From positions 61 to 64,060 of the forward strand of contig JAKAXE010000004.1 of the NCBI GenBank assembly GCA_021816695.1: DNA of 64,000 bases, in the 5' to 3' direction. This document shows positions 33,848 through 50,871 of the stretch, in pieces; the first letter of the stretch is position 1, and every line of letters starts with the position of its first letter. Below the pieces are notes generated by a model that saw nothing but the letters and a program-made list of their open reading frames with translations, was not told where the DNA came from and did not search any database. The DNA comes from a bacterium. Its GTDB lineage: Bacteria; Chloroflexota; Dormibacteria; Aeolococcales; Bog-877. Both the position numbers and the translations under genes were made by a program.

Positions 33848-34054
33848 CAGCCCATGGTATCGGAGCGATGGTCGGCAAAGGCAGGGGTTTTCGCCCAGGT
33901 GGCGCGGAGCGTTTCCCTCGATGCCGGGACTGCCGCCGCTGCCTGGAGATTAGGGGCCCCCTGCTAAAATCGAGTTCAAAAGATCGCCGAGCCGCGGCCC
34001 CGAGCCCGCCTTCGCCGGGGGCCCCGGGCGGGGCTCCATGGGAGGGCCCCAGCC

Positions 34055-34882
34055 ATGTCCGTCGTCTTTGACTTCTCCGGGAGGGTGGCGCTGGTGACCG
34101 GGGCGGGCCGGGGGGTCGGGAGGGTGACCGCGGCGGCCTTCGCCGACTCCGGGGCCAAGGTGGTGGCGGCTGACCGCGACGCCCCTGGGCTCGCGGAGAC
34201 CGTGGCCCCCTACTCCGGGCGGATGATCTCCGTGGAGGCGGACATCAGCACCCCGGAGGGCGCCCGGGAGGTGGTCTCCAGAGCGGTCCGGGAATTCGGT
34301 CGGCTGGACATCTGCGTGAACAACGCCGCCGTCGCCCCCCACACCAGCCTTCTGGAGGAACGCGTCGAGGTCTGGGACCGGGTCTACGCGGTCAACTGCC
34401 GGGGCACCTTTCTCATGACCCAGGCGGCCGCCCGGGCGATGATCGAGCAGGGCACCGGAGGGCGGATCATCAACTTCTCCTCCGGAGTCAGCTCCCGCGG
34501 CTCGGCCGGCGCCGCCGCCTATGCCAGCAGCCGGGCCGCCACCGAGAGCTTCACCCGGGTGGCGGCCATCGAGCTGGCCCCGCAGGGGATCCTGGTCAAC
34601 TGCGTCAGCCCGGGGCTGATCGACACCCAGCCCAAGCCGCTGCCCCCGGCCATGGCCGCCTCGCTGGCCGCCCGGATCCCGAGGTTGCCCCTGGCTCGGC
34701 CCGGGAGACCCGAGGAGGTGGCGGCGATGGTGCTCTGGCTCAGCTCAGAGGCGGCGAGCTACGTCACCGGGACGGTGCTCTCGGTGGACGGGGGGGCGGG
34801 AGTCGGCTCCCGCTCCGAGGACCCGGTCGTGGACGACGACGTCCGCTACGACTGGGTCACCGGCCGGCAGCGACCCGGCTGA
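34055..34882 (+). CDS. SDR-family oxidoreductase (FabG-like) with YxxxR in place of YxxxK
   Basis: TGAGRGVG, NNAA, YASSRAA, VSPGLIDT, VDGG. Confidence 0.85.
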   Translation: MSVVFDFSGRVALVTGAGRGVGRVTAAAFADSGAKVVAADRDAPGLAETVAPYSGRMISVEADISTPEGAREVVSRAVREFGRLDICVNNAAVAPHTSLLEERVEVWDRVYAVNCRGTFLMTQAAARAMIEQGTGGRIINFSSGVSSRGSAGAAAYASSRAATESFTRVAAIELAPQGILVNCVSPGLIDTQPKPLPPAMAASLAARIPRLPLARPGRPEEVAAMVLWLSSEAASYVTGTVLSVDGGAGVGSRSEDPVVDDDVRYDWVTGRQRPG

Positions 34883-34903
34883 GGGGAGGAGAACCCCCCG
34901 GGA

Positions 34904-36253
34904 TCAGCGGAAGCCGAGGCGGAAGCCCCGCACGCGCAGGCTGGGAGCGCTGGCGACCCCGTTCCAGACGTTCATGATCGGCTGGCTGAGGAGCTGCGAG
35001 CCCACCCCGTCGGTACGGCTCAGGATTCCCAGCACCTCCTCGGTGAATCGGGAGGAGGCCACCGGACCCGCCAGCCGTCCCCCGCGGATGCGAAACGCCG
35101 CGTCGCGGGTAACCCCGGTGAAGGCGCTGGTCTCGGGGTCCACCATGCGGGTGTAGTGGAAGCGGGAGATGTAGAGGCCGTCGTCCACCCCTTCGATCAG
35201 CTCCGCGGTGGTTGAGGATCCGGGTCTCAGGATGAGATTGGCCGGGGTCGGGGACGGGGCCTCCTCCCTGGCGATGTGGGCGTGCCCGGTGCTCCTGGTC
35301 CCCGCGGCCCGGGCCGTGGCCAGGTCGAACACGGCCGCTCCGACCCGTCCACGGTCCAGCATGGGGACCTCCACCTTGGGCATCCCCTCGATGTCGAAGG
35401 GGATGGGGAGGCCGACCCCGGCGAAGAGCGCGTCATCGGCGACGGTGACCAGCTCGGAGGCGACCGTCTGCCCCTGCCGCCTGGCAACCGCCCCGGCGCC
35501 GGCGGCCACGGCCTCCCCGGTGAACCCCATGGCGCCGAAGAAGGTGAGCATATCCCCCACGGCCAGTGGTCCCAGGACCACGTCGTAGGTACCCGGTGGG
35601 AGCGGCTCCGGGTCCCGGGCGGCGGCGGCCTCGGCCAGCGCTCCGTGCACCATCTCCTCCACCGCCATCCGCTCCACGGATCGCGACAGGTCGCCCCGGT
35701 AGGCCGAGCCCGCTCCGGAGCGGACCAGGAGGGTGGCCGCGGCCTCGGTGGCGCTGACATAGGCGCGCCCCGAGGGACCGGCGGTAGCCATCTCCACGAG
35801 AACCCGGGAGAGCATCCCGTTGGCGGTGGCGCCCGCGGCCTGGGCGAGGGTCATGGCGACCGAGGCCACCTGGCTGCGGGCACCCGCACCCCAGGCGGCG
35901 GTGTCCTCGTCCCACTCGGAGAAGGAGCCGGAGACGGCCTCCGCGGGAGCGCCGGCCGAGGTGAGTCCGGGCACCAGGGCGGCGGCCCTTCTGAGCGCCT
36001 CCGCGCCGGTGGCTCGAGCATCCTCCAGCCGGGAGGTGGCCACCCGGGCGGCGCCGCCACCTCGGTCCACGGTCACCATGAGCTGGACCTCCTCCACCGC
36101 CTGCGGCTGATGGACCCTGGTCCCGGCGAAGCGGGTGTGCTCCCCCTGGCGCACGGTGGTGAAGGCATGGGCACCTTCGCCTCCGGCAGCTAGCAGCGCC
36201 TCCTCCAGGCGGCCCAGTAGCTCGTCGCCTCCACGAAGCTGGGCGGCGATCAC
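34904..36253 (-). CDS. TldE/PmbA-family protein (non-catalytic partner)
   Basis: TRFAGTRVHQ, FDIEG, HAHIA, HYTRMVDP...FTGVTRD; no HExxxH; GTGA coupling to TldD. Confidence 0.88.
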   Translation of the reverse strand: MIAAQLRGGDELLGRLEEALLAAGGEGAHAFTTVRQGEHTRFAGTRVHQPQAVEEVQLMVTVDRGGGAARVATSRLEDARATGAEALRRAAALVPGLTSAGAPAEAVSGSFSEWDEDTAAWGAGARSQVASVAMTLAQAAGATANGMLSRVLVEMATAGPSGRAYVSATEAAATLLVRSGAGSAYRGDLSRSVERMAVEEMVHGALAEAAAARDPEPLPPGTYDVVLGPLAVGDMLTFFGAMGFTGEAVAAGAGAVARRQGQTVASELVTVADDALFAGVGLPIPFDIEGMPKVEVPMLDRGRVGAAVFDLATARAAGTRSTGHAHIAREEAPSPTPANLILRPGSSTTAELIEGVDDGLYISRFHYTRMVDPETSAFTGVTRDAAFRIRGGRLAGPVASSRFTEEVLGILSRTDGVGSQLLSQPIMNVWNGVASAPSLRVRGFRLGFR

Positions 36254-37737
36254 CCGGCCACCCCGATCCGGACGCCTCTCACCAGGATGGGGGCGGCGCC
36301 GTGGGAGACGAACCCCCACTGCTTGGGCTCGCCCTTGCCGCAGGGAAGCCCAAACACCTGGAGGGTCTCGGGGCCTCCGACCGCCTCCACCGATCCCCAG
36401 AACTCGGGGGTCACCCCGCCGTAGGAGGCGTTCCTGTACAGTCGGGTCCGCCGCCCCCGGCGGACCTCCCAGGCCACCTCGGTCCCGAACTGGAAGTTCA
36501 GGCGCTTCTCGTCGATGCTCCAGCTGCGGTCCATGTCCAGGTAGTAGCCGTCCCCCAGCCGTTCCAGGAGGGCGTCGAGGTCCCCCTCCCCCGGCCGGAG
36601 GCCGACGTGGGTGGAGAAGCAGAGGGGCATGAAGCTGTGGCCGTCGGCCCGCATGGCCGCGGTGCTGGACCGCCCGATCCGCTGGGCCGTCTCCCTGGAA
36701 GAGAGGAAGTCGTTGACGATCCCGTTCTCGATCAGGACCGCGGGTCGGGCCGGCTGGCCCTCGTCGTCGAAGGCGAAGGAGCCGCGGGCCCCGGGTGTGG
36801 TGGGGTCGGCGATCATGGTCACCGCTTCTGAGCCGTATCGCATCCGCCCCCGCTCCTCGGCGCGGATGAAGGAGGTGCCGGCAAACCCGGCCTCGTCCCC
36901 GAAGATCCGGTCCAGCTCCAGGGCGTGCCCGCAGGACTCGTGGATCTGCAGCGCGGTCATCGCCGGCCCCAGCACCAGGTCGGCCGTGCCCGCCGCCAGG
37001 ACCGGGGCTCGCAGCAGCGCCCGGGCCTCGTCCGCCACCCTGGGCAGCTCCGCGGGAAGCCGCAGCTCATCGAGGTACTCCCAGCCGGCGGCAGCGGTGT
37101 TGCCGTGAAATGAGTTGGGGTAGGAGCGCCGCTGCACCTCTCCGTCGCGAGCCGCCCAGACCTGGAGCAGCCCCCCGGTCTCCAGCAGCTCCTGGACCTG
37201 CCACGACCCCTCGCTGCTGGCGAAGCATCGGCGCTGGCGCTTGGCGTTGACCCCGGCCACCGCCCGCGTCACCTCCGGGGTGGCGAGCGCCTCCTCCAGA
37301 AGCCCGGCCACCAGCTGGTGCTTGGTGGATGGCGGAACGGCGAACGGGTCCACGATGAACGGCGTCCGGAAGTGGCCGCTGGCCCCCGGCAGAGGATCCA
37401 GGTGCGCCGAGTTCGGGCCCACCTGCGCCTCCGCCATCTCCACGGCGGCGACGGCTGCCTCGATCGCCTGAGAGGCGGGCCCGAGCACCCGGCTGCCGAA
37501 GCCCCAAGCCCCCCGGAGGAGCACCCGGACACCGAGCCCGACCACCTGCTCCAGCCGCCAGTCGGGCTCCCGGCCCGAGGCCGCATACAGCCGCTCCTCC
37601 ACCACCTCCACCAGTCGGGCGTCGGCGTAGGTCGCGCCCCGGCCGAGCGCCAGGTCAACGGCCTCCTGGGCGAGGGCGCGGGCTTCGTCTTCGGAATGCG
37701 CCCATGCCCAAGAGGACGCGGTGGCAATCTGGCTCAA
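36250..37737 (-). CDS. tldD: TldD-family zinc metalloprotease
   Basis: QIHESCGHALE (HExxxH), LPCGKGEP (C-terminal Cys ligand), FAFDDEG; TTG 37737 after SD GGAGGAGG. Confidence 0.9.
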   Translation of the reverse strand: MSQIATASSWAWAHSEDEARALAQEAVDLALGRGATYADARLVEVVEERLYAASGREPDWRLEQVVGLGVRVLLRGAWGFGSRVLGPASQAIEAAVAAVEMAEAQVGPNSAHLDPLPGASGHFRTPFIVDPFAVPPSTKHQLVAGLLEEALATPEVTRAVAGVNAKRQRRCFASSEGSWQVQELLETGGLLQVWAARDGEVQRRSYPNSFHGNTAAAGWEYLDELRLPAELPRVADEARALLRAPVLAAGTADLVLGPAMTALQIHESCGHALELDRIFGDEAGFAGTSFIRAEERGRMRYGSEAVTMIADPTTPGARGSFAFDDEGQPARPAVLIENGIVNDFLSSRETAQRIGRSSTAAMRADGHSFMPLCFSTHVGLRPGEGDLDALLERLGDGYYLDMDRSWSIDEKRLNFQFGTEVAWEVRRGRRTRLYRNASYGGVTPEFWGSVEAVGGPETLQVFGLPCGKGEPKQWGFVSHGAAPILVRGVRIGVAG

Positions 37738-37807
37738 ATCGGGAACTCCTCCTCCCCGCTGTCGACGGGGGCGGGGGGGCGGCCGCCCCGGGCGGCCGCC
37801 CCCGAGG

Positions 37808-39655
37808 TCACTTGGTGTAGTACCAGTCCTGCGGGAAGATGGCGAGCAGGGGGTTGGCGGGAAGGACCCCCTTGAGCTTGCTCTTGACCTCCAGGAGCTG
37901 GTAGTCGGCATTGGGGATCCAGAGCTCCGGAAGCTGCTTGGCGACGTAGGTCTCCCAGGCGAACAGCGCCGACTGTCCGCCCTGAACGGCCGCGTTGGAG
38001 AGCCCCACCTCGGTCTGGTCGCAGTAGCTGCCAGCGTTCAGCGCCCCGCCACAGCGGAAGTAGCCGCCGCCCGGCGGGTAGTAGGGCAGGGTGTAGACCG
38101 CACCGCCCCAGTCGATCATCTGCCAGCTGCAGGCAGCCTGCGAGCTGGTGCAGGGGATGGCGTCCGCGTAGGCGAAGGTGCTGCCCTTGAGGTTGATCTG
38201 GACCCCGGCGTGGCTGGCCGTGGACTTGTAGATCTCCATCTCCGTGAGGCCGGCCGTGTAGTTGTCCTGGTAGATGAGGGTGAAGGACAGCTGGCTGCCC
38301 TTGGCCACCCCGGGGCCGCATTGATTGGATGCGGTGCCGGGGTTCTGACAGCTGTCCACGCCGCCGGGAACGATGCTCCAACCGTGCTGCCGCAGCAGCG
38401 ACTCGGCGGTGCTGATGCTGTACGGGTACGGGTAACCCTGGGCGCTGAGGCTGGGTGCCGTCACCGCCGGGGCGCCGTTGACGACCGGCCCGTAGGTGGG
38501 CACGCCATACCCCACCAGCGCCGTCTTGATCCACTGGGGCTGGTCGACGAGCCGCTCCAGCGCCTGGCGGATGTAGAGCTGATGGAAGAGGGGGCCCGCG
38601 GTCGGGTTGTTGAAGTTGATGAACAGGGAGTTGAAACCGTACACCGGCCAGACGCCGAAGCTGTATCCCTGGTGGGACAGCTCGGTCGTCAGGTTGGAAT
38701 CGCTGGTGGGCAGGTAGCCCACGTCCACCGAGCCCGCCCGGACCGCGTCCACCTCCGCCGTCTCACTGTCGAAGGGCTCGAAGATGAGCTTGGAGATGTG
38801 GGGCTTGTCCGGCCCGCTGTAGCTCGGGTTGGGCTGCATCACGATGTAGCCACTGTTAAGGAAGGTGGTGAGCCGCCACGGCCCATCCACCACCTTCCAC
38901 AGCGGGTTGGTCGCGTAGGTGGCGATGTTCTTCGACTGAGCATCGAGGAAGTTGAAGACGGACTGGGCACCGGCGGTGGTCTGGTCGTAGTTGCCGATGG
39001 CGCCCGAGGAGGACTCCTTGTCCCAGGCGTGCTGGGGCATGGGGGTGATCTGCGCCAGCTCGTTGTAGGTGAACCAGGTCGGGGAGTACGCCTTGTTGAG
39101 GGTGAACGTCAGCTTGTAGGTGCTGTCGATCTTGATCGAGGTGACGTTGTCCGGAAACAGCCCGGGCACGTACGCCGCCCAGTTGTCCTTCTCCGCCCTT
39201 AACTCGTTCATCCAGAAGGTGACGTCCCGGGCGCTCACCGGGGTGCCATCCGACCAGACGTAGTGCTTGAGGGTGATCACCACCTGGGTGTTCCCGTCCT
39301 GGTAGACAGGTGGATAGGCCAGGCTGATCTTGTAGTTGATCGCGGGCGAGGTCCCGGACCCGAACTGATACAGCGGCGGGATCATGAGGTACTCAAACTG
39401 GCTCTGGTACTGCACCGTGAAGTCGGTGGCCGGGTACAGCGGCAGAATCCAGGGCGGGCCGATGCCCGCCGTCTCGGCCACCGTCACCGTTCCCCCGGAG
39501 ACCGGCTTGCCGCTGCCCGAGGCCTGCCCGGAGTTGGTGCTGGCGCAGCCCGCCACCAGCCCGAGCGCCACAAGGCCCGATACCCAGATGGGGCCGGCGG
39601 CCCAGCGCCGGCCGCCTATCCTCATCAACCTGGAAAGCATTCTCATCCCGGTCAC
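37808..39655 (-). CDS. Family-5 (peptide/opine/oligosaccharide) ABC substrate-binding lipoprotein, with no adjacent permease or ATPase
   Basis: Lipobox LVAGC, WSDGTPVSARDVTFW, VDGPWRL, IRQALERLVD; SD TAAGGAGG. Confidence 0.88.
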   Translation of the reverse strand: MTGMRMLSRLMRIGGRRWAAGPIWVSGLVALGLVAGCASTNSGQASGSGKPVSGGTVTVAETAGIGPPWILPLYPATDFTVQYQSQFEYLMIPPLYQFGSGTSPAINYKISLAYPPVYQDGNTQVVITLKHYVWSDGTPVSARDVTFWMNELRAEKDNWAAYVPGLFPDNVTSIKIDSTYKLTFTLNKAYSPTWFTYNELAQITPMPQHAWDKESSSGAIGNYDQTTAGAQSVFNFLDAQSKNIATYATNPLWKVVDGPWRLTTFLNSGYIVMQPNPSYSGPDKPHISKLIFEPFDSETAEVDAVRAGSVDVGYLPTSDSNLTTELSHQGYSFGVWPVYGFNSLFINFNNPTAGPLFHQLYIRQALERLVDQPQWIKTALVGYGVPTYGPVVNGAPAVTAPSLSAQGYPYPYSISTAESLLRQHGWSIVPGGVDSCQNPGTASNQCGPGVAKGSQLSFTLIYQDNYTAGLTEMEIYKSTASHAGVQINLKGSTFAYADAIPCTSSQAACSWQMIDWGGAVYTLPYYPPGGGYFRCGGALNAGSYCDQTEVGLSNAAVQGGQSALFAWETYVAKQLPELWIPNADYQLLEVKSKLKGVLPANPLLAIFPQDWYYTK

Positions 39656-39815
39656 GATCCCTCCTTAAGTCGCGGCCGCTAGCGGACTTCGGGGTCGCGT
39701 TCGCACCCCGAAAACAGACGTTGGAAGGCCGTCCGGTGACGGCCCGTGGACACCCAAGTGGGCCTGCGCCCCAACCGGGGAGACGCCAGGGGAACCGTTG
39801 GCGAGGTCAGCCCCA

Positions 39816-40571
39816 TCACTCGCCGCTCACTTCACTGGAGATGTCGCCCCCGGAGGCGCCGGGGGTAGTGTCCGCCCGATGGTCGAGGGGCTCGACGTAC
39901 CCCTTGATCAGGCGGGCGTACGCACCCTCTAGGTGGACCCGGATCATTTCCAGCGCCTTCTCGGTGTCATGGGCGGCCATGGTCTCCACCAGCTCCCCGT
40001 GCTCCCGGTGGCCCACCTCGCTGAAGTCCGGATTCACAAGGTTGCGCGTCAGAAGGAAGCGGAAGATGTGCGAGCGGAGCATGGTCCAGCAGGCGTAGAG
40101 CCGGTCGTGGCGCGCAGCTTGGTACACCAGGTCGTGGAACGCGACGTCCAGCTCGGCATATTCCCGGGGGCTGAGGCGTGCGGCGGCCTCAGGCATTCGG
40201 TTGGCCAGCTCGCGGAGGCGGCCCAGGTCCTCCGGGGTGGCCCGCGCGATGGCCAGCCGCACGGCGAGGCTCTCCAGGCTGGCCCGCAGGGTGTAGACCT
40301 CCTCCACATCCTGTGCCGTGAGCCCCACCACGATGGCGCCGCGATGGCTGCGGATGGCCACCAGCCCCTCGTGGCCCAGCTGGGCAAAGGCGTCCCGCAC
40401 CGGGCTTCGGCTCACCTGCAGCGCCGCTGAGATCTCCGCCTCGCGCAGGTGCTGGCCGGGTTTGAACCTCCCCGTGACGATGGCCTCCCTCAGTCGGTCT
40501 GCCACCTCGTCGGAGAGGACCCGGTGGGGAACCGCGGTCAGGGCTTTGGCTTCGCTGAAGTCGTCTGGCAC
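39816..40571 (-). CDS. GntR-family (FadR/FCD) transcriptional regulator
   Basis: LREAEISAALQVSRSPVRDAFAQLGHEGLV winged HTH; FCD LDVAFHDLV and HREHGELVE; start moved to GTG 40571 because the promoter lies inside the longer track ORF. Confidence 0.93.
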   Translation of the reverse strand: MPDDFSEAKALTAVPHRVLSDEVADRLREAIVTGRFKPGQHLREAEISAALQVSRSPVRDAFAQLGHEGLVAIRSHRGAIVVGLTAQDVEEVYTLRASLESLAVRLAIARATPEDLGRLRELANRMPEAAARLSPREYAELDVAFHDLVYQAARHDRLYACWTMLRSHIFRFLLTRNLVNPDFSEVGHREHGELVETMAAHDTEKALEMIRVHLEGAYARLIKGYVEPLDHRADTTPGASGGDISSEVSGE

Positions 40572-40581
40572 GGTGGATGTA

Positions 40582-40610
40582 ATATTGTCGACAATCCATC
40601 TACCTGTCAA
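40582..40610 (-). promoter_or_regulatory. Promoter TTGACA-N17-CAATAT with palindromic GntR-type operator ATTGTCGACAAT (40584-40595)
   Basis: Perfect 12-bp palindrome overlapping the -10; same architecture as the 41657-41685 site. Confidence 0.85.
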
Positions 40611-40708
40611 GTCCCCGGACACGCGATCGGATGAGGATCCGCCCCGAGGTGCCGCGGCGCCGTCCCCCCCAGGGCCATCGCCGAGTTCCCCGGGCAGTCC
40701 GGTCGACG

Positions 40709-41467
40709 TCATGCGCGCGCCGCCTCGGTCCGCAGGCTGATGGCCTCAGACAGCTGGAAGGCGTCGAACCGCAGCCCCGTGGCCTGCTCCGCATCCAGGG
40801 CGGCGAGGTAGGCGAAGGCGGGGGCCAGGCGGCTGGGTGAGATCATCCGCTCCCGCATCTCGGGGGTGTAGTGCCCCCACGACATGGGAGTGTCGATCGG
40901 CGCTCCTGTGGTCGCGGTGTTCACCGCGATGTTGAACTCGGCGCCCTCAATACTGAGCACCTTCATGAGCCCTTCCTGGCCGTGCTTAGCGGGGGTGTAG
41001 GCGGACTCCAGGGGGAAGCCCCGCAGGGCGGAGCCGGAGGAGATGAAGACGATGCTTCCGTGGCCCTGAGCGATCATCGGCTCCCAGACCCCCTTGGCCA
41101 AGACGAAGGCCCCCTGCAGGATGATGTCCAGCTCCCGGCGCCAGCCCTCGAAGGTCCACTCCCGGAACGGGCGCGGCGTCAGGACGGCGGCGTCGTGGAT
41201 CAAGGCCCGCGGCGGCCCCACCTGACGCACGGCCTCGGCCACGGCGGTCTGGGTCCCGGCGGCATCGGCCAGATCTGCCACCACCGGGAGCGCCTGGATC
41301 CCGAGCGCCAGGAGTTCGTGAGCCAGCGAGGCCACCTTGCCCTCCTGCACGTCGAAAAGGACCAGGTTCATCCCCCGTGCCGCCAGCTCCCGGGCGATCG
41401 CGTTTCCCAGGCCGTCTGCGGCGCCGCTGAGGAAGCACCACTGGCCGCGGATGTCGTGCAGACCCAT
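40709..41467 (-). CDS. SDR-family oxidoreductase
   Basis: SGAADGLG, HDAA, SSGSA, YTPAKHG; SD GGGAGG before ATG 41467. Confidence 0.88.
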   Translation of the reverse strand: MGLHDIRGQWCFLSGAADGLGNAIARELAARGMNLVLFDVQEGKVASLAHELLALGIQALPVVADLADAAGTQTAVAEAVRQVGPPRALIHDAAVLTPRPFREWTFEGWRRELDIILQGAFVLAKGVWEPMIAQGHGSIVFISSGSALRGFPLESAYTPAKHGQEGLMKVLSIEGAEFNIAVNTATTGAPIDTPMSWGHYTPEMRERMISPSRLAPAFAYLAALDAEQATGLRFDAFQLSEAISLRTEAARA

Positions 41468-41656
41468 TAGCTCGCCTCCCAGTTCGGGCGGGGTTGGCCA
41501 CCGCCGCTGTCCACCATGGGCGGGCGCCCCAGCTGCCACCCGGAGCGGAGCGCCGGGTCCGAGGTCCCCGTGTCCAAGGAACCCGCGCGGGCGTCCCTTC
41601 CCGGGGGGCGGGCGGCGGCGTTGGCGTGCTGGCGATGCTCAATCACGGTGTACCAC

Positions 41657-41685
41657 ATATTGTCGACAATCATCAGCTGTGTCAA
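41657..41685 (-). promoter_or_regulatory. Promoter TTGACA-N17-CAATAT with operator ATTGTCGACAAT (41659-41670)
   Basis: Exact second copy of the palindrome and promoter geometry, upstream of the SDR. Confidence 0.85.
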
Positions 41686-41710
41686 GCCCCTCTGAGCGCG
41701 TCCCTGAGGC

Positions 41711-42868
41711 TCATGGGAGCGGCTCGGATCGGACCTCGGTCCAGGACCGGGAGCGGTGCGAGGCCTCGACCGCGTTGATCACCTCCTGCACCGCCGCCCC
41801 CTGGGCGAAGTCGCCCTGGTTGTCATCCCGGCCTGAGGTGATCTCCTCCACGAAGCTGCGGATCAGGTTGCCGTAGCAGGTCTCCTCCCAGCCGTGACCG
41901 GTCTCGTGCTGGGGCGGGAAGAACTCCTCGGGGATGGGTAGGCGCCTGAACTCCACCTGGTCGGCGGTGGCCCCCCAGAGGCGCTGCCACTCGCCGTTCT
42001 CCTCGACGATCCGGCAGATCAGGGCCCCGCGGTCGCCGTACAGCCGGGCTTCCACGCCGGGGTAGTTGCCCACGGTGACATAGCTGCTTTGGATCGTCCC
42101 CAGAGCCCCGTTGGCGAACTTGGCGATGAAGACGTCGCCGTCATCCAGGTTGATCGGCTCCCGGGCGCTGTCGAGATTGGTGCGGCGGCGCTCCGGTACG
42201 AAGTTGCGCAGCACTCCCACCGTCTCCTTGATGCCGGACCCGGTGAGCATCAGCCCGATGTCGATGATGGGAGCTCCATAGCCCTCGAGGCTGGAGACCG
42301 TGATCGCCTCCTCCCCCGGCTCCCAGCCGCCCACCTGGTCGTCGGCGGGGGCGGCGAGGAGCCGCTTGTCGGCTGGATTGTCCGGGTCCAGCCACTGGCT
42401 GTTCTGCTCGTAGCCGTTGAAGACGAAGGGGCGGCCGCACCACCCCTGGGCCACCAGATGGGCCATGTAGGAGATGGCCGGCGCGTAGCGGAAGGTGAGC
42501 CCGACCTTGGTCTTCAGACCCCGGCGCCGCGCGATCTGCGCCGCCCTCCAGACATCCTCCGCCCGATGGGCCACCGGCTTCTCGGAGAGGCAGTGCTTGC
42601 CCGCCTCCAGGGAGGCGAACACCAAGGGGTCGTGCTCGTCCCGGGTGCAGACGTCCACCACGTCGATGTCGTCCCGGGCCAGCACCTCACGGTAGTCGGC
42701 GGAGATCCCATCAGCCCCGAACTGGGCGGCGGCGGCGCTGGCCAGCTCCTGGTTGAGGTCACAGACCACGGCCAGCCTTACTCCCGGGCACCTTTGCCAG
42801 CCGGGCAGGTGGGCCCGCTGCGACCACCTCCCGGCACCGATGACTGCCACCCGCAGCTCGTCCGCCAT
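41711..42868 (-). CDS. Gfo/Idh/MocA-family oxidoreductase (paralog of 46647-47765)
   Basis: GAGRWS, LSEKP, FNGYEQNSQWLDP, SSLEGYGAPIID. Confidence 0.88.
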   Translation of the reverse strand: MADELRVAVIGAGRWSQRAHLPGWQRCPGVRLAVVCDLNQELASAAAAQFGADGISADYREVLARDDIDVVDVCTRDEHDPLVFASLEAGKHCLSEKPVAHRAEDVWRAAQIARRRGLKTKVGLTFRYAPAISYMAHLVAQGWCGRPFVFNGYEQNSQWLDPDNPADKRLLAAPADDQVGGWEPGEEAITVSSLEGYGAPIIDIGLMLTGSGIKETVGVLRNFVPERRRTNLDSAREPINLDDGDVFIAKFANGALGTIQSSYVTVGNYPGVEARLYGDRGALICRIVEENGEWQRLWGATADQVEFRRLPIPEEFFPPQHETGHGWEETCYGNLIRSFVEEITSGRDDNQGDFAQGAAVQEVINAVEASHRSRSWTEVRSEPLP

Positions 42869-42873
42869 CTACC

Positions 42874-43866
42874 TCACCTCCCTGATTCTCTGGAAGCGGC
42901 CGCCCGAACCCACTCGAGCGCCTGGGCCGTGGGAATCGAGTCGTCGATCGCCAGGTGCCGGGGGCTGGCTCCCTCCCTCAGCACTGCGTGGATGTGCCGG
43001 AGCAGCGGGGCGAAGGTGGGCTCGTCGGTCATCAACCGCTCCCTCTCGCCTGGGCGCCCGGCGACACGCAGCTCGAAGGTGTCATGGGCACCGGGATGAA
43101 AGGGGTCGGTGAGCTCCAGAGAGCCCTCGGTGCCCAGGAGCCGAGTGGTCGTGTCCCTCGCCCGGGAGAGACCGCTGCTGAAGAGGAGGCGGAGCCCTCC
43201 ACCGTACTCGAGGAGGCCACAGGTCTCCAGGTCAACCCCGGAAGGGGCCGCGGTGGCGGAAACCAGGGCGCGCCCGGGAACCTGCCGGAAAAGGAGTGCG
43301 GCCAGGTGGACGGGGTAGCAGCCCACGTCGTTGAGCGCACCTCCGGCCAGCTCCGGGCTCCAGCGGATGTTATCCGGCCGGCGGACCGGGAAGTGGAAGT
43401 GGCTCACCACCTCCCTGAGCTCTCCGATCTCCCCCCCGGAGATCAGCTCCTCGGCCCTCAGGTACTGCCGGTGGAAGGGGAAGGCGAAGGCCTCCCACAG
43501 TGGGGCTCGGGCCCCCCGGGCCAGGGCCACCAGCTCCTCCACCTCGGCCAGGTCGACGCCCAGCGGTTTCTCGCAGAGCACCGCCTTGCCCGCTCGCAGC
43601 GCCGCCCCGGCCCACTCCACGTGAACGGTGTTGGGTAGGGCCACGTAGACCGCGTCGACCTCGTCGGTACCGATCGCCCCCTCATAGTCGGAGATCCGGC
43701 ACTCCACCTCCTCGCGAGCCAGCAGCTCGGCGGCTCGCCGGCTGTCCCGGCTGCCCACGACCACCACCTCACCGCCGCCGGCGGCCCGCAGCGAGGGCAG
43801 GAAGTTGGCCCTGAAGATGTTGGCGGCGCCGAGAACCCCCCAGCGGACCGATGCCGGCTCAGCCAT
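42874..43866 (-). CDS. Gfo/Idh/MocA-family oxidoreductase (GFOR/aldose dehydrogenase-like, Tyr type)
   Basis: WGVLGAANI, VYVALPNTVH, LCEKP, GGALNDVGCYP. Confidence 0.9.
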   Translation of the reverse strand: MAEPASVRWGVLGAANIFRANFLPSLRAAGGGEVVVVGSRDSRRAAELLAREEVECRISDYEGAIGTDEVDAVYVALPNTVHVEWAGAALRAGKAVLCEKPLGVDLAEVEELVALARGARAPLWEAFAFPFHRQYLRAEELISGGEIGELREVVSHFHFPVRRPDNIRWSPELAGGALNDVGCYPVHLAALLFRQVPGRALVSATAAPSGVDLETCGLLEYGGGLRLLFSSGLSRARDTTTRLLGTEGSLELTDPFHPGAHDTFELRVAGRPGERERLMTDEPTFAPLLRHIHAVLREGASPRHLAIDDSIPTAQALEWVRAAASRESGR

Positions 43867-44746
43867 TCAGCCCCTCCTCCGTCCCCAGGGAGAGCAGCTC
43901 AGCCAGGTTGGCCCCGGGGTCCACTGCCAGGGCGAGCTTCCCCTCGCGGCCGGAGAGGAGGACGGTGAGCCCCAGGCCGTGCCCCGGCAGACGGCTGGCC
44001 CCGTGGGACACGACGCCCACCACCACCGAGCCCGGGCGATATCCGCTGATGTAGGCCGCGTCCCAGTCCCGGACCGCAACCAGGTCACCCAGGCGCGCCT
44101 GGGCCAGCTCCGGGATCGTCTCCAGCAGGGAGGGGGGAGTCTGCAGCTCCCAGGAGGTGGCGGCGGCCACCCGCCCGGCCCCCATCCCGACCGCCTCCGG
44201 GGGCAGCTCCAGCCTCACCCGGACCTCCAACCCGTCCCCCCTGGGCTCCGGGGCCCAGGCTGCCCAGAGCTCGGGCCCCAGGCTGTGAGCCACCACGGCC
44301 GGGGAGGGGCACGGCCGGAGGCCGCGGCCGATCGCCTCAATCGCCACCTGGTCTCCGGGGGCGAGCACCTCCAGGGCAGCGGCCGGGAGGTCGACCAGCA
44401 CCTCCTGGAAGCGCTGGAACTCCTCGTGCTTCCCGGTCACCACGCCCTCGGCGCCGGCGGCCGCCCCGGTTCGGACCCTGGCCCGGTTGCCCACACAGGC
44501 GAAGAGGTTCAGGGCCCGGTTGGCCGCCACGTCCGGATGGGCGATGCTCGCCCCGGGCTGGACCCGATCCGCCTCCCAACCGAAGGCGGGCATCCCGACC
44601 CGCACGTTGTAACGGACCCCCTGGCAGCCCACCGGCACGAACGCTCGGCCCTCAAAGTCGGTGAGGTAGGGCGAGGACTCCATCTCCGGCTGGCTCACCC
44701 ACCCCACCAGCATGGTTCGCACCAGACGCGGGGAGTCCACGGTCAT
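43859..44746 (-). CDS. DUF4438-like protein, copy B
   Basis: Aligns by eye with copy A: YNVRVG, QPGAS, ACVGN, VTGKH, GDLVAV, GVVSHG..PGHGLG; ATGA coupling. Confidence 0.75.
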   Translation of the reverse strand: MTVDSPRLVRTMLVGWVSQPEMESSPYLTDFEGRAFVPVGCQGVRYNVRVGMPAFGWEADRVQPGASIAHPDVAANRALNLFACVGNRARVRTGAAAGAEGVVTGKHEEFQRFQEVLVDLPAAALEVLAPGDQVAIEAIGRGLRPCPSPAVVAHSLGPELWAAWAPEPRGDGLEVRVRLELPPEAVGMGAGRVAAATSWELQTPPSLLETIPELAQARLGDLVAVRDWDAAYISGYRPGSVVVGVVSHGASRLPGHGLGLTVLLSGREGKLALAVDPGANLAELLSLGTEEGLNG

Positions 44747-45609
44747 CGGGCCAGCTCCAAAAGGTTGGCCAGATTGCGGCCCGGCCCCGGGTGGTAGGAG
44801 AGAAGCTCCCGTCGGCCGCTGAGCAGGGTGACCACCCCGACCCCGTGCCCCGGGCTGGGGCCGAGAGCGTGGACCACCACCCCCACGGCCGAGTACCGGG
44901 GATCGTAGCGGCGGCCGAAGCGGTGGTCCTGGCCGGGCATGCCGACGAGGTCCCCCACCCTCAGCCCCTCCAGTCCCAGCCGGCGGACAGTCTCGCGGTC
45001 GTGCAGCATCACGTCGCAATTGGCCCACTCGCAGTCCATCCCCAGTCCCGCGCCCATCACCTCGGGGGTGAGCTCCGCGGCCACGGCCACCGAAATGGCC
45101 CCCGGACCGGTGAGCTCCAATCCCAGGCGGTTCAGGAGGTGCGGCGAGCAGTTCCTGCAGGCGACCTCGGGAGCGTCCAGGATGGCCAGCCCCTGGCCAC
45201 TGGCCCGCACCAGGAGGCGGTCTCCGGGGAGGATCTGCTCCAGGGCCTCCTGGGGGAAGTCGATCAGCACGTAGGCGTGCTTGCCGGCCACAATTCCCCG
45301 GGAGCCCCGCGCCGCCCCGCTGAGCACCTGGACGGGATTGCCCAGGCAGGCCAGGACCTGGAAGGCGAGGTTGGCTGACTCCCCCTCGGCCTCCGCCGAC
45401 ACCCCCGCTTCGCCATGGTCGCAGGCGAAGTCGAACACCGGGGACCCCACCCGGATGTCCGGGGTCACCCCGGACATGCCAGGCAGGATCCCGGGCAGAT
45501 CGTCCCGGTCCACGGCGTAGGTGCCGGGGTGGCGAGGGTAGCTGACTCTTCCCAGTAGCCCCACCTGCACCAGCATCTCCTCGTTGGTGCGGAGAAGAGC
45601 GGGCGGCAT
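44743..45609 (-). CDS. DUF4438-like protein (Thermotoga TM1086 family), copy A
   Basis: LRTNEEMLV, DHGEAGVS, ACLGN, GSRGIVAGKH, LRVGDLV, GVVVHA..PGHGVGV match my recollection of the family. Confidence 0.8.
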   Translation of the reverse strand: MPPALLRTNEEMLVQVGLLGRVSYPRHPGTYAVDRDDLPGILPGMSGVTPDIRVGSPVFDFACDHGEAGVSAEAEGESANLAFQVLACLGNPVQVLSGAARGSRGIVAGKHAYVLIDFPQEALEQILPGDRLLVRASGQGLAILDAPEVACRNCSPHLLNRLGLELTGPGAISVAVAAELTPEVMGAGLGMDCEWANCDVMLHDRETVRRLGLEGLRVGDLVGMPGQDHRFGRRYDPRYSAVGVVVHALGPSPGHGVGVVTLLSGRRELLSYHPGPGRNLANLLELAR

Positions 45610-46643
45610 CAGTAGAGACGGTCCTTGCGCAGCACGTTCAGGAGTTCCGCCCCGTGCCGGTACCGCTCCAGGTTCTCGCTGAAGAGCTGGGCCAGAAGCT
45701 GGTTCTCACCGGCCACCGTGCTCATGGAGTGTGGCGTGACCAGGACGTTGGCAAGGTCCCACAGTGGGCTCCCCGGCGGGAGCGGCTCCTCCCGGAAGAC
45801 ATCCAGGGCGGCCCCGCGAAGCCTGCCCTCCCGAAGCGCTGCGGTGAGGGCGTCCTCGTCCACCACGGTGCCTCGGGCCAGGTTCACCAGCACCGCCGAG
45901 TGGGGCAGTAGGGAGAGCCGCGCTCCCGAGATGAGCCCCTCGGTCTCGTCGGTGTGGGGCATGGCCAGGACCAGGAAGTCGGCCTCAGGCAGGGCGCTCT
46001 CCAGCTCCGCCACCTCGAGCAGCCGGTCGACGCCGGACGAGGCCGCCGTCCTGCCGTCCAGGGAGCGCACCACCCCCGTGGTTCGCGCCCCCAGGGCCCT
46101 GGCCAGGGTCGCCACCTCCCGGCCGATGCTGCCCAGCCCGACGATGACCACCTCCTGGCCCGCCACCAGGCGGCCGCTGCGTCGCGCCCACTGGTGGAGC
46201 CGTTGGTCGGCGAGGATCTCCGGCAGGTCGCGGTTGAAGTAGATCATGGCGAAGATGGCGAACTCCGCCAGCGCCCGCCCATGGACTCCCCGGGCGGTGG
46301 TCACCACCACCTTCGCACTCTGGTCCAGCCCCACCCGGCGAACGAACTGTCCGACCCCCGCCGAGGTGGCCTGGATCCAGCGGAGATTGGGGAGATGGGC
46401 CAGCTCGGTGTGCAGGGCAGGCGGCCCAAAGTCGAACATCACCTCCGCCCGGGAGAGCAGCGTACGCCAGCGGTCGAGTTCCTCCCCCTGGGCCCCGGGC
46501 ATACGGTGGTGGCCGGGGTACTGGGGGGTGGCGATGAGGTCCTCGGGGTACTCGAAGGTGTACTCCGGATGGGACCGCCGCAGGCGCTCCACCAGCTCCG
46601 GCTCCAGGGGGGTGGTGAACACCACCAGGCGGTCCACTGGCAT
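45609..46643 (-). CDS. D-isomer-specific 2-hydroxyacid dehydrogenase
   Basis: SAGV, VGLGSIG, NLARG, LDVFREEPL, VTPH (R/E/H triad). Confidence 0.92.
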   Translation of the reverse strand: MPVDRLVVFTTPLEPELVERLRRSHPEYTFEYPEDLIATPQYPGHHRMPGAQGEELDRWRTLLSRAEVMFDFGPPALHTELAHLPNLRWIQATSAGVGQFVRRVGLDQSAKVVVTTARGVHGRALAEFAIFAMIYFNRDLPEILADQRLHQWARRSGRLVAGQEVVIVGLGSIGREVATLARALGARTTGVVRSLDGRTAASSGVDRLLEVAELESALPEADFLVLAMPHTDETEGLISGARLSLLPHSAVLVNLARGTVVDEDALTAALREGRLRGAALDVFREEPLPPGSPLWDLANVLVTPHSMSTVAGENQLLAQLFSENLERYRHGAELLNVLRKDRLY

Positions 46644-46646
46644 CGC

Positions 46647-47765
46647 TCAGCCCTCCAGGGGGAGCTGAACCCAGCCGTGGCGGCGGTGGGACAGCTCGAC
46701 GGCATTGATCACCTCCTGCACCCGGGCGGCGGCCAGGAAGTCGGCCTGCGCCGGAAGGTCGGGGTCGGCGATCTCACTGACGAAGGCGGAGATCAGGTTG
46801 GCGTAGAAGGCGGTGTCCCAGGGCTCGGTGAGACCGCCCCCGGGTGGGTACAGCCGCTCCGGAACCTCAAGGCTGCGGAACTCCACCTGGTCCCGGCGGG
46901 CGCCGTAGAGCCGCTCACACACCCCCTCCTCCTCCACCAGCCGGCAGATCAGGGCACCCTCGGTGCCGTACAGCCGCGCCTCCAAGCCGGGGTAGTTGCC
47001 CACCGTGACATAGCTGCTCTGGATGGTGCCGATGGCGCCGTTGGCGAAGCGGCAGAGGAAGGCGTCGGCGTCGTCGATCGGCAGCCGCACCGGGACCTGG
47101 GATCCCGGTACCAGGCGCTCGGGGACGAGATTGGCCAGCTGACCCACCACCTCCTCGAGCTCGGAGCCCACGAACCAGAGGGCGAGGTCGATGATCGGGG
47201 CCCCGTAACCCTCCAGGGAGCTCACCTGGATGTCGGCTCCGGCTCCCGGATCCCCCTCGCCGGCCCGGATGGGGGTCATGGGGTCGAGGAACTGGGAGTT
47301 CTGCTCGAAGCCGTTGAAGACCAGGGGCCGTCCGACGTACCCCTCGGCGATCAGCTCGCGCATGCGCATCATCGCGGGGCTGAACCGGAAGGTGAAGCCC
47401 ACCTTGGTGCGGAGCCCGCGGGAGAGCGCCAGCTCCCCCGCGTCCCGGGTGCGGGCCCACTCCCGGTGCACCGGTTTCTCGCAGAGGACGTGCCTCCGGG
47501 ACTCGAGGCCGGCCATGGCGCTCAGGAAGTGAGCCGGCCCCCAGGTGACCACGTCCACAACCTGGACCTCGGGGTCGGCTAGCAGCTCGGCCTCCGAGGA
47601 GTAGGCCCTGGAGCCGGGAGCCATGGCTGAGAGAGCACGGGCTCGATCCTGGTCCAGGTCGTACACCCCGACCACCCGAGCCCGCGGGTCCCGCAACCAG
47701 CCGGGAAGGTGGGCGCGCTGAGCCCAGCGTCCCGCCCCCACGATCGCCGCCCCCAGCTCTGCCAA
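46647..47765 (-). CDS. Gfo/Idh/MocA-family oxidoreductase (paralog of 41711-42868)
   Basis: GAGRWA, LCEKP, FNGFEQNSQFLDP, SSLEGYGAPIID; TTG 47765 after SD GGAGGGG. Confidence 0.88.
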   Translation of the reverse strand: MAELGAAIVGAGRWAQRAHLPGWLRDPRARVVGVYDLDQDRARALSAMAPGSRAYSSEAELLADPEVQVVDVVTWGPAHFLSAMAGLESRRHVLCEKPVHREWARTRDAGELALSRGLRTKVGFTFRFSPAMMRMRELIAEGYVGRPLVFNGFEQNSQFLDPMTPIRAGEGDPGAGADIQVSSLEGYGAPIIDLALWFVGSELEEVVGQLANLVPERLVPGSQVPVRLPIDDADAFLCRFANGAIGTIQSSYVTVGNYPGLEARLYGTEGALICRLVEEEGVCERLYGARRDQVEFRSLEVPERLYPPGGGLTEPWDTAFYANLISAFVSEIADPDLPAQADFLAAARVQEVINAVELSHRRHGWVQLPLEG

Positions 47766-47814
47766 CTGCTCCCCTCCAACACCGGGCCGGACCCGTCTGA
47801 GCGTGATTGGAGAA

Positions 47815-47829
47815 AGTATATTGTCGACC
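47815..47829 (-). promoter_or_regulatory. Degenerate GntR box (ATATTGTCGACC) adjoining a TATACT -10 hexamer at the head of the oxidoreductase operon
   Basis: ATTGTCGAC at 47820-47828 matches 9 of 12 nt of the perfect boxes; no clear -35. Confidence 0.6.
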
Positions 47830-47873
47830 GAGCCCACGCGCCCACGCGGGTCAGCCGAGATGACGACACCGGG

Positions 47874-48881
47874 TCACCCCGAAGGGGACGGGGTGGTGGA
47901 GTACCGGAGCGGGGCGCAAGCCGCCGTGGACGCCGCGCAGGTCACGAAGTCCGTGACCGGGGGTTGGTTGGACACAGAGAAGACCAGGACCGGGACGAGG
48001 AAGCCGGCGCTGGCCACCATCCCCAGGCTCGCCCCCGAGATCAGCACCACGGTGCTCGTGGCGTTGGGGCTGGGAGAGGGAAAGGGCTGCCCGGAGGAGT
48101 CCAGAAGGTAGGAGCCCGGTGCCAGGAGGCCCTGGTTCAGATCCTGGATCATGAGATCGGGAGTCGTGGCAGGGTAGGCGGCCAGCGGGCCGGTGATCGG
48201 CGGGGGTACGGTGCCCGAGAGGCCCACCAGGGACAGCTGCTCCCGGTAGTTGGCGGCCACGTCGGCGTACACCTCCTGGGGCTGACCGCTGATGTCTACC
48301 AGCGGGTACCCGCTCACCGCCCACTCGAAGAAGACCCGGCGGTCGGCGGCGTTGACGACGCTCAGGGAGGGCAGGGGGAGCAGGCTCTCATGGGGGTAGG
48401 GGAGGTGGCGGGTGGCGAGGAATTGGGAGACGAAGGCGTCGGCGGCCGCCACCGAGGGGGTCGCCCCCGTCTCGTCCACCGGGGTGTTGGGGTGGAAGTT
48501 GAAGAGCTGGTACCCCGTCGGCGAGGTGAGCTGGTATCCGGAGGTGGCGCCAAGGTTGTAGGAGAGGCCGGCGCCGGTGTTGACGGCCGGCCCGGGGACC
48601 TCCAGGGCGGTCACCAGGTCCTGGAGGGCGGTCAGGGGATCCTGCGCCGTCTGGGCGGCGGGAACATGGCGGGGCATCTGCGGCAGCCGGCCCTGGACCA
48701 GGAACGGGGGCTGAAGGTCAAGAGGGGCGGCGACCTCTCCCCCCAGAGGCAGCACCCCCAGGGGAAGTGGCGGGGTGGGAGTGGGGCTCACCTCGGGATG
48801 GGGATGGTGATGCGGCGCGACGGAGCCACAGCCGGCCAGCAGCAGCAACGCCAGCGCCGCGGCCGGGATGAGCGTTCTCAC
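47874..48881 (-). CDS. Hypothetical lipoprotein
   Basis: Hydrophobic signal with lipobox LLLLAGC, His/Pro-rich linker; no family recognised. Confidence 0.65.
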   Translation of the reverse strand: MRTLIPAAALALLLLAGCGSVAPHHHPHPEVSPTPTPPLPLGVLPLGGEVAAPLDLQPPFLVQGRLPQMPRHVPAAQTAQDPLTALQDLVTALEVPGPAVNTGAGLSYNLGATSGYQLTSPTGYQLFNFHPNTPVDETGATPSVAAADAFVSQFLATRHLPYPHESLLPLPSLSVVNAADRRVFFEWAVSGYPLVDISGQPQEVYADVAANYREQLSLVGLSGTVPPPITGPLAAYPATTPDLMIQDLNQGLLAPGSYLLDSSGQPFPSPSPNATSTVVLISGASLGMVASAGFLVPVLVFSVSNQPPVTDFVTCAASTAACAPLRYSTTPSPSG

Positions 48882-48900
48882 GCCCTCACAATGCCAGACC

Positions 48901-50199
48901 ATGGACTACCGTGAGTCGCTGGCGGCGCTGGCCGCATCCAGCCGGCCGGGCATGCGCCTCGGCCTGGACTCCACCAGGGCCCTCTGCCGGGAATTGGGTG
49001 ACCCTCAGGACCAGCTCACAGGAGTCCTGGTGGCGGGCACCAACGGTAAGGGCTCGGTCTGCGCCCTGGTCGCGGCCATGGCCAGGGCTGCCGGGCTGCG
49101 CGTGGCACTCCTCACCAAGCCCCATCTCACCAGCTACCGGGAGCGGGTCCAGCTGGGGGAGCGCCCGGTCGCGGAGGAGGAGTTCGCCCGCCTGGCAGCC
49201 CAAGCCCTGGAGGCCGCCCGCCGAGGGGGGGTGGACGCCACCCACCACGAACTCCTGACGGCGATGGGGTTTCTCGCCGCAAGGGAGTGGGGTGCCGAGG
49301 TCACCGTGTGTGAGGTGGGGCTGGGAGGGCGGCTGGACGCCACCAACGTCTGGGACGGCGGGGTGGCGGTCGTGGTCTCGGTGGGGCTGGATCACCAGGC
49401 CCAGCTGGGCGACACCGTGGCCCAGATCGCCGGCGAGAAGGCGGCGATCTTCAAGCCGGGTGACCTGGCCATCTCCGGGGCCCTGGGGGAGGCCCGGCCG
49501 GTGGTGCGGGCGGCCGCCGCAGGGGTGGGCGCGGAGCTCTGGCAGCTCGGAGAGGGGATCGAATACGCCTGGGAGGCGGCGGGACTGCGGGTCCGGACCC
49601 CGGCCCGGGAGCTGGGCGAACTGGAACTGGGGGTGACCGGCCAGGTGCAGGGGGCCAACGCCGCCGTGGCCGTGGCCGCCACGGACGGCCTGGGCCGGCT
49701 GCTGGGAGCGGAGATCGGTGAGGGAGCGGTCCGGCAGGGATTGCTGGGGGTCCGCTGGCCGGGACGGCTGGAGGAGGTGGCCACCTCCCCCACCGTGCTG
49801 GTGGACGCGGCTCACAACCCGGCCGCCGTCGAGGCGGTCCTGGGGGAGCTGCGGGCAGCCACCGGGGGCCGGCGGGCGGTGCTGCTGTTCGGGTCCATGG
49901 GCGACCACGACCACTCAGGGATGCTGGCCCGGCTCTCGTCCCTGCCCCTCTGGGCGGCGGTCTTCACCAGGGCCGACGCCATCCGGGCGGTGGAGCCCGA
50001 GGTCCTGGCCCGCGAGTGGCCCGGGAGATCGGAGCGCCTGGTGCCGGTGGCGGCGGCGCTCTCCCGGGCACGGGAGCTGGCCGGTCCCGAGGGGGCGGTG
50101 ATCGCCCTCGGTTCGATCTACCTGGTCGGAGAGGTCATGGCCGAACTGGGAATCGGCCTCCCGCCCGATCCCAAGGTGGCCTGGCGGCCCGCCTACTGA
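48901..50199 (+). CDS. folC: Folylpolyglutamate synthase/dihydrofolate synthase
   Basis: VAGTNGKGS, TKPHLTSYRER, EVGLGGRLDATN, WPGRLE, DAAHNP, GSIYLVGE. Confidence 0.95.
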   Translation: MDYRESLAALAASSRPGMRLGLDSTRALCRELGDPQDQLTGVLVAGTNGKGSVCALVAAMARAAGLRVALLTKPHLTSYRERVQLGERPVAEEEFARLAAQALEAARRGGVDATHHELLTAMGFLAAREWGAEVTVCEVGLGGRLDATNVWDGGVAVVVSVGLDHQAQLGDTVAQIAGEKAAIFKPGDLAISGALGEARPVVRAAAAGVGAELWQLGEGIEYAWEAAGLRVRTPARELGELELGVTGQVQGANAAVAVAATDGLGRLLGAEIGEGAVRQGLLGVRWPGRLEEVATSPTVLVDAAHNPAAVEAVLGELRAATGGRRAVLLFGSMGDHDHSGMLARLSSLPLWAAVFTRADAIRAVEPEVLAREWPGRSERLVPVAAALSRARELAGPEGAVIALGSIYLVGEVMAELGIGLPPDPKVAWRPAY

Positions 50200-50223
50200 A
50201 CTGCGGCTGAGGGCGCCGCCGGG

Positions 50224-50871
50224 TCAGACGGGGAGCGGGGCGGCCTCCGCCAGCGCCCGCCGGCAGAGCTGGGTGATCTCCTCCCACCTCTCCTCCCGCA
50301 GGAGGCCGGGCCGGAAGAGGTCGTTGGTCAACCCCACCACCCGGACCCCGGCGGCGAGGTACTCGGTGACGTCCCCGATCCCCACCATCCCGCTGACCCA
50401 GAGGGGCACCTCGGGCATCGGCCCCCGGACGGCGCGGATGTACTCGGGCCCGCCCAGGGGGTTGGCCGGGAACACCTTGACCAGACCCGCCCCCAGCTCC
50501 ATCGCCCGGGCGATCTCGGTGGGGGTGCTGGCCCCCATCACCAGCAGGACCCCGGCCTGCCGGGCCACCTCGGCCACCTCGGGGACCAGGTACGGGGTGA
50601 CCAGGTATTCGGCTCCAGCCCCGAGCGCGGCCTCGGCCAGCTCAGCGCTGGTGATCGTCCCGCCACCGAAGTGGCAGCTCGAGCCGAACTCCTTCCGCAG
50701 GCGGGCGATGGTCTTGAACGCCCCCGGGGTGCCCGAGGTGACCTCAACCGACCCGACCCCCGCCCGAGCCGCCGCCTCCGCCCCGCGATACGCCTGCTCC
50801 CCGTCGGACCAGCGCATGACCGCTGCCAGGCGGGTCGGGAAGTAGGTGGCGATCTGGTCGGGCTGGGTCAT
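50224..50871 (-). CDS. eda: KDPG/KHG aldolase family protein
   Basis: VEVT (catalytic Glu), GGGTI, TPTEI, VKVFPA (Schiff-base Lys), GGPEYIRAVRGPMP; SD AAGGAG. Confidence 0.85.
   Translation of the reverse strand: MTQPDQIATYFPTRLAAVMRWSDGEQAYRGAEAAARAGVGSVEVTSGTPGAFKTIARLRKEFGSSCHFGGGTITSAELAEAALGAGAEYLVTPYLVPEVAEVARQAGVLLVMGASTPTEIARAMELGAGLVKVFPANPLGGPEYIRAVRGPMPEVPLWVSGMVGIGDVTEYLAAGVRVVGLTNDLFRPGLLREERWEEITQLCRRALAEAAPLPV

Follow-up and report, generated by a model that had tools for sequence, protein, structure and literature searches.

A putative operator of a FadR-type GntR regulator may connect a DUF4438 gene cluster with a remote transporter operon in a Dormibacteria genome

Two promoters in one gene cluster of a Dormibacteria genome carry the same short palindrome, and one of them precedes gntR, a gene for a transcriptional regulator. 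Does this regulator act on the palindrome and, if so, which genes are switched together? The window analyzed here is a stretch of 64,000 nucleotides (nt; contig C22:61-64060) from an assembly of 2.49 Mb in 142 contigs (69.7% G+C, 89% complete). An initial annotation of this DNA had proposed a local GntR regulon, a reading that comparative genomics support and to which they add a remote transporter operon. From the sequence and its conservation, we consider it likely that the adjacent GntR, which is of the FCD type (FadR subfamily), recognizes the 12-mer ATTGTCGACAAT as its operator and would act as a repressor; we infer repression rather than activation, as well as a single effector.

Both copies of ATTGTCGACAAT lie over the core of a minus-strand promoter. 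The sequence reads ATTGT-CG-ACAAT, a perfect dyad with the palindromic core GT-N2-AC that is typical of the FadR subfamily. Box 1, the candidate operator O1 (40584-40595), overlaps the -10 and the spacer of the gntR promoter, P_gntR (40582-40610), which is composed of TTGACA (40610..40605), a 17-nt spacer and CAATAT (40587..40582). Box 2, the candidate operator O2 (41659-41670), is an identical 12-mer in the promoter of a short-chain dehydrogenase (SDR) gene, P_SDR (41657-41685), which begins 25 nt past the stop of the oxidoreductase gene Gfo3 and shows TTGACA (41685..41680), N17 and CAATAT (41662..41657). Seen in the direction of the genes, both boxes span the -10 and the larger part of the spacer. 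The initial annotation had placed the same two promoters ahead of gntR and the SDR, each with the box over its -10, and coordinates and sequences match; its gene starts are corrected here to ATG 41467 for the SDR (with a leader of ~183 nt), GTG 40571 for gntR, and TTG 47765 for the first gene of the six-gene operon discussed below. The gntR GTG is found 10 nt past the P_gntR -10, and the gntR mRNA is apparently leaderless, judging from this layout.

The exact 12-mer did not occur in 100 dinucleotide shuffles of the window, and the 2.49-Mb genome holds only two copies, both in this locus. A set of 120 palindromes matched in composition averaged 0.025 exact copies per genome, and none but ATTGTCGACAAT was present at least twice. 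Across 151 genomes of the order, 33 exact copies of ATTGTCGACAAT are found in 27 genomes, compared to none for the reversed control pattern.

The product of gntR (39816-40571, minus strand, 251 amino acids (aa)) combines a GntR winged helix (PF00392, E = 4.6e-17, residues 20-82) with an FCD domain (PF07729, E = 9.4e-27, profile positions 1-124 of 125), which places the regulator in the FadR subfamily, where the initial annotation had put it. The closest solved structures are those of the FCD-type GntR regulators 3C7J, 2HS5, and 3FMS. None of the NCBIfam equivalogs (PhnR, NanR, CsiR, LldR, PdhR, GlcC, UxuR/ExuR) matched above its curated cutoff; the best match, TIGR03338 (phnR_burk), reached 122 bits against a cutoff of 271.5, and all others scored lower. 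The translation includes the FCD motifs DVAFHD, REHGE, and RVHLE, which, by eye, may correspond to the D..H, H, H pattern of the FCD metal site.

We compared the gene neighborhoods of GntR orthologs (52-94% identity) from 13 relatives in five genera. Of the 14 orthologous loci, representing five genera, 11 have the motif TTGTCGACAA ahead of gntR or of the operon to which gntR belongs, and the box is retained in the gntR promoter of relatives down to 52% protein identity, with diverged flanking bases. The register of TTGTCGACAA is fixed with respect to TTGAC and to a GTG or ATG start 10-11 nt past the -10, while the spacer and the flanks vary. The P_gntR layout recurs in 16 aligned promoters, and the left half of the box, ATTGTC, located in the spacer, is invariant across genera. 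This pattern is a classic phylogenetic footprint, and the fixed distance to the start suggests that the gntR mRNAs of the relatives may be leaderless too. Autoregulation, which had been put forward as a common FadR-type trait, thereby gains support of a positional kind, with O1 over the P_gntR -10 and the box kept in these 11 loci.

The initial annotation had also called for a genome-wide scan for remote members of the regulon, such as the missing permeases. The scan yielded a single one-mismatch site, AATGTCGACAAT, at G000 C91:11528-11539, located 7 nt past TTGACA-N17-TAGACT and across the expected transcription start. This site precedes an operon (C91:11460-16669; L003/L054) encoding a family-5 solute-binding protein (SBP; SBP_bac_5), two permeases of the Dpp/Opp type, and an SDR. 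The remote SBP gene, ~100 nt 3' of AATGTCGACAAT, encodes a protein 41% identical to the local SBP encoded next to gntR. Orthologous operons in G003, G006, and G019 are preceded by the site, conserved amid diverged flanks; in G016, where the ortholog of the remote operon adjoins the gntR cluster, the site has two mismatches. Two-mismatch matches on C30 and C101 were taken as chance, given that the stretches around them, at 54-61% G+C, look like coding sequence; a further one is located on C86. The stretches themselves (C30:38000-42800 and C101:3200-4400 in G000) differ from the ~70% G+C of the genome and may be acquired DNA. No ABC ATPase genes were found adjoining the local cluster or the remote operon. 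An insertion sequence (IS)-type transposase and a DNA methyltransferase are encoded just upstream of the remote operon, on the opposite strand. Family-5 binding proteins are strongly expanded in this lineage: at E <= 1e-60, this genome has 11 matches and several relatives have 32 or more, and some of these copies adjoin their own distant GntR paralogs (G010:C33, G012:C73).

Could the sequence shared by boxes 1 and 2 be nothing but a duplicated promoter, whose -10 and spacer are palindromic by accident and have no operator function? The window's genus is the only one in which the SDR and its promoter are present (the window, G002, and G003), and O2 is conserved in G002 and G003. P_SDR resembles P_gntR beyond the box, sharing TTGACA, GATG, and an ACCGTG at equal distance, which points to a duplication of P_gntR. 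The GTG included in this likeness, 10 nt past the P_SDR -10, was rejected as a gene, its frames of 59, 26, and 21 codons in the three genomes not being conserved. Nevertheless, a promoter does not need perfect dyad symmetry; ATTGTC lies in a spacer, which is normally unconstrained, and yet is invariant across genera; and the remote box is conserved in another context, 3' of its own TAGACT -10. We therefore find a mere promoter duplication very improbable as the origin of the palindrome. The SDR itself starts 183-580 nt past P_SDR, after GGGAGG, in the three genomes, behind a non-conserved leader of variable length. This leader (41468-41650; equivalents L034, L035) resembles a decaying relic of an element that the promoter formerly drove. 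In G002, a further copy of P_SDR drives an extra family-5 binding protein gene directly 3' of Gfo3.

If the palindrome is an operator, it could still be bound by a different factor encoded elsewhere, its position before gntR reflecting a coincidental co-regulation. This GntR has at least two FCD-type paralogs elsewhere in the genome, and GntRs of a sister family with ~33% identity (L023/L028/L122; G049, G052, G056) also have ATTGTCGACAAT upstream, beside a related repeat, ATTGTTCACA. The motif is thus not unique to one ortholog group, and more distant regulators in the order share the operator core. What makes a different factor improbable is that the box is physically linked to the gntR ortholog group across five genera, is absent upstream of the two other FCD-type paralogs of this genome (C67, C96), and fits the subfamily core GT..AC. 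The Streptomyces homologs (38-47% identity) have no such box upstream, indicating that the operator is clade-specific. In addition, the operator center and the protein change together in a well-supported sister clade of GntRs (the second copy of G008, L041, G008:C29; and G026, L043, G026:C101). This clade shows TGTATACAAT or CTGCATACAAT at the equivalent promoter position, with TA instead of CG in the center, and its wing reads RPRHGA, compared to RSHRGA or RRHRGA. In FadR-type complexes the wing approaches the operator center; since both are altered in the sister clade, protein and site appear to have co-changed. This may represent a specificity switch that arose naturally among paralogous repressors.

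The last promoter potentially involved in the regulon precedes a six-gene operon that starts with Gfo1 and includes a D-isomer-specific 2-hydroxyacid dehydrogenase (2HADH) and two DUF4438 paralogs. The degenerate box that the initial annotation had seen there beside TATACT is indeed present, the promoter less completely so. Box 3, ATTGTCGAC (47820-47828, in a minus-strand promoter), matches 9 of 12 positions, having CGA instead of AAT in the distal half, and abuts TATACT (47820..47815), with no recognizable -35 in this promoter, P3. In the whole O3/P3 block (47815-47830, minus strand), CGGTCGACAATATACT, the half-box GTCGACAAT (9/12) runs directly into TATACT, which resembles a -10. In five genomes of the window's genus, CGGTCGACAATATACT is an invariant block of 16 nt, followed by near-invariant leader bases and surrounded by diverged flanks. 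In G019 and G008, which belong to genus g2, a full box in a TTGACA promoter precedes the orthologous operon, whose genes (Gfo1-2HADH-DUF4438a-DUF4438b-Gfo2-Gfo3) continue directly into gntR-SBP-TldD-TldE. In G016, of the same genus g2, the operon is reduced: it begins with 2HADH, includes gntR, and has a full box in front. Taken together, the full box in g2 and the invariant block in the window's genus suggest that box 3 is the conserved, decayed descendant of a full operator.

Whether this descendant is still bound is a separate matter. O1, O2, and the remote site could be GntR operators while the half-box at 47820 no longer binds, in which case transcription of the six-gene operon would come either from the lipoprotein gene ahead of it or from a TATACT promoter independent of GntR. 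The loss of the left half-site and of the -35, with a match of only 9/12, is consistent with this, as is the end of a same-strand gene 37 nt upstream of the block, and TATACT and the leader bases would be conserved for promoter function alone. The 9-mer half-site is moreover found at chance frequency: with up to one mismatch, the window has 6 matches, compared to 5.2 expected, and there are 13 strand-hits genome-wide. However, CGGTCGACAA, which lies a good way 5' of TATACT, is likewise invariant in the five genomes, with diverging neighbors, and the same CGGTCGACAA variant precedes Gfo1 in G020, of another genus. Full boxes at this position in G019 and G008 also speak for a functional site, as does the regulator DipR, for which a conserved, imperfect palindrome remains a target, bound less tightly (PMC11472048). 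We regard an operon outside GntR control as possible but doubtful, and lean towards a half-box that still binds the repressor. GntR control of this third site is nonetheless the weakest link of the regulon.

On the other side of gntR, 3' of it, come the genes for SBP, TldD, and TldE; four other genomes, from three genera, show this same-strand order (G007, G019, G008, G020). The gap between gntR and SBP (39656-39815, 160 nt) includes no box and no promoter-like site. On its minus strand, four same-genus genomes share the hairpins GGCCGTCACCGGACGGCC and GGGGTgcgaacgcgACCCC, the second with compensatory changes, followed by an invariant 40 nt up to the SBP start. Given the kept gene order, the conserved hairpins, and the gap without box or promoter, SBP-TldD-TldE most likely ride on the gntR transcript. 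Their membership in the regulon, which had been considered probable, is consistent with this synteny and with the boxless gap. The hairpins could be processing or stabilizing elements or an attenuator. A terminator scan predicted no intrinsic terminator on the minus strand from 50500 to 34000. An Rfam scan of 34000-50500 gave no matches at E <= 1, so that neither the SDR leader (183 nt) nor the gntR-SBP gap matches a known RNA family.

Several points weigh against the regulon as described. The closest same-genus ortholog outside the core group, that of G001 (L037, G001:C129; 74% identity), is boxless: TTGACA is kept and the box is lost (GCGCGCGAACAAGAT). There, gntR adjoins an alanine dehydrogenase gene and the SBP-TldDE genes are absent. 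The circuit appears to have decayed in the G001 lineage, and it is not universal. Within the window, P_SDR is probably a duplicate of P_gntR, to judge from the bases they share, and not an independent occurrence. The 9-mer half-site being at chance level, box 3 is not significant by count, and its support rests on position and conservation; this conservation could reflect the -10 and the leader in a 9/12 site without -35, rather than repressor binding. A lone one-mismatch site somewhere in the genome is by itself unsurprising, matched palindromes giving a null mean of 0.23 per genome and a composition-based estimate ~0.5. Finally, the covariation of wing and operator goes back to a single evolutionary event and is modest evidence.

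With a FadR-type repressor and its operators, the following mechanism can be proposed. A dimer at O1 and at O2 would cover the -10 and the spacer, blocking RNA polymerase at the near-identical gntR and SDR promoters. Occupancy of O1 would amount to negative autoregulation, probably including the downstream SBP-TldD-TldE, and binding to the one-mismatch box at the remote start site would repress the second SBP, the two ABC permeases, and the SDR. The half-box at P3, as the descendant of a full operator, would probably give a weaker, partial repression of the six-gene operon. P_SDR being 25 nt past the Gfo3 stop, a repressor at O2 and O1 may also stop read-through from upstream. A small molecule, be it the substrate taken up or an intermediate of the pathway, would bind the FCD domain and free the repressor, leading to the joint induction of transporter, oxidoreductases, DUF4438 pair, and peptidase pair.

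The genes concerned belong to a minus-strand run from 48902 to 34904, in which we count 13 genes; 12 are listed here, with Pfam assignments and refined starts. The first, at 47874-48902, encodes a predicted lipoprotein of 342 aa with the lipobox LLLLAGCGS and without any match in Pfam and NCBIfam. Its gene lies immediately 5' of the Gfo1 operon in each of the five same-genus genomes; in the other genera examined, none was detected at this position. The six-gene operon follows with Gfo1 (46647-47765, Pfam), an oxidoreductase of the Gfo/Idh/MocA type whose TTG start comes after a GGAGG ribosome-binding site, 2HADH (45609-46643; Pfam, NCBIfam), DUF4438 paralog a (44743-45609; Pfam, with a match of 4e-49 to PDB 3N99/3DCL), DUF4438 paralog b (43859-44746; Pfam), whose ATG 44746 overlaps the stop of paralog a (ATGA), and two more Gfo/Idh/MocA oxidoreductases, Gfo2 (42874-43866; Pfam, NCBIfam) and the final gene, Gfo3 (41711-42868; Pfam, NCBIfam). 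The SDR (40709-41467; Pfam adh_short), with its ATG after GGGAGG, and gntR come next, followed by the family-5 SBP (37808-39655; Pfam), TldD (36250-37737; Pfam), and TldE/PmbA (34904-36253; Pfam), the latter two overlapping by stop and start (GTGA). DUF4438 corresponds to the TM1086 family, with the solved structures 3N99 and 3DCL and no assigned function. A full-text literature search by this family name found no papers.

What these genes do together can be approached with speculation. The three Gfo/Idh/MocA oxidoreductases, the D-2-hydroxyacid dehydrogenase, and the SDRs might oxidize a polyol or sugar-like moiety, and TldD/E with the family-5 binding proteins would allow a peptide- or opine-like conjugate. 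We tentatively suggest, with less than even confidence, that the genes may form an undescribed Dormiibacterota catabolic route, with uptake through the family-5 SBP, processing by a DUF4438 heteromer, three Gfo/Idh/MocA oxidoreductases, 2HADH, SDRs, and TldD/TldE, and an FCD domain sensing the substrate or an intermediate. If so, the ligand could be sought with the operator-repressor pair as a biosensor, and DUF4438 could thereby be assigned a function. Sequence and comparative evidence would in any case define co-switched genes in an uncultured phylum (Ca. Dormiibacterota), and the regulon would join two unlinked loci, the Gfo/DUF4438/SBP/TldDE cluster and the remote operon that supplies the permeases absent locally. 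The main value of the GntR and its 12-bp box is as a handle on DUF4438, offering an in vitro entry to the ligand of a DUF4438-centered pathway.

As a mechanism, the proposed circuit is textbook, since FadR-type repressors that act on palindromic boxes and control their own gene are well known, and we see it as real but ordinary. A literature search for Dormibacterota and GntR found no papers, and one for TTGTCGACAA gave no report of a bacterial operator among the matches listed; since SalI cuts at the core GTCGAC, these matches probably stem from cloning primers. Among known systems, DipR of Alcaligenes faecalis is a FadR-family repressor of the dipicolinate dip cluster that binds several promoters of the cluster, including its own, one conserved imperfect palindrome being bound with lower affinity, and that is released by its effector (PMC11472048). 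The present system would likewise have an autoregulated FCD/FadR-type repressor on short palindromic boxes at several promoters of one catabolic cluster, with an imperfect box kept among relatives and an effector that releases the protein. Nevertheless, the core is GTCGAC here, whereas it is GTATAC in DipR, the proteins are not close relatives, and the genes differ, being Gfo/Idh/MocA, DUF4438, family-5 SBP, and TldD/E. Atu1419 of Agrobacterium fabrum, a FadR/VanR-type repressor with the 10-bp site ATGTATACAT (cited in PMC11472048), shares with our candidate the 10-bp palindrome xTGT-NN-ACAx, in which GT and AC are two bases apart, and a VanR-like FCD regulator. It differs by a central TA instead of CG, by its pathway, hydroxycinnamate degradation, and by belonging to another phylum. 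The FadR-subfamily consensus is TNGTNNNACNA (Rigali et al. 2002, cited in PMC11472048), with for example TGGTCTGACCA for LldR. Like such operators, the box described here has a T-GT...AC-A dyad suited to a winged-helix dimer and overlaps promoters, with frequent autoregulation, but the spacing between GT and AC is two here, compared to three in the consensus, two being the spacing of Atu1419 and DipR.

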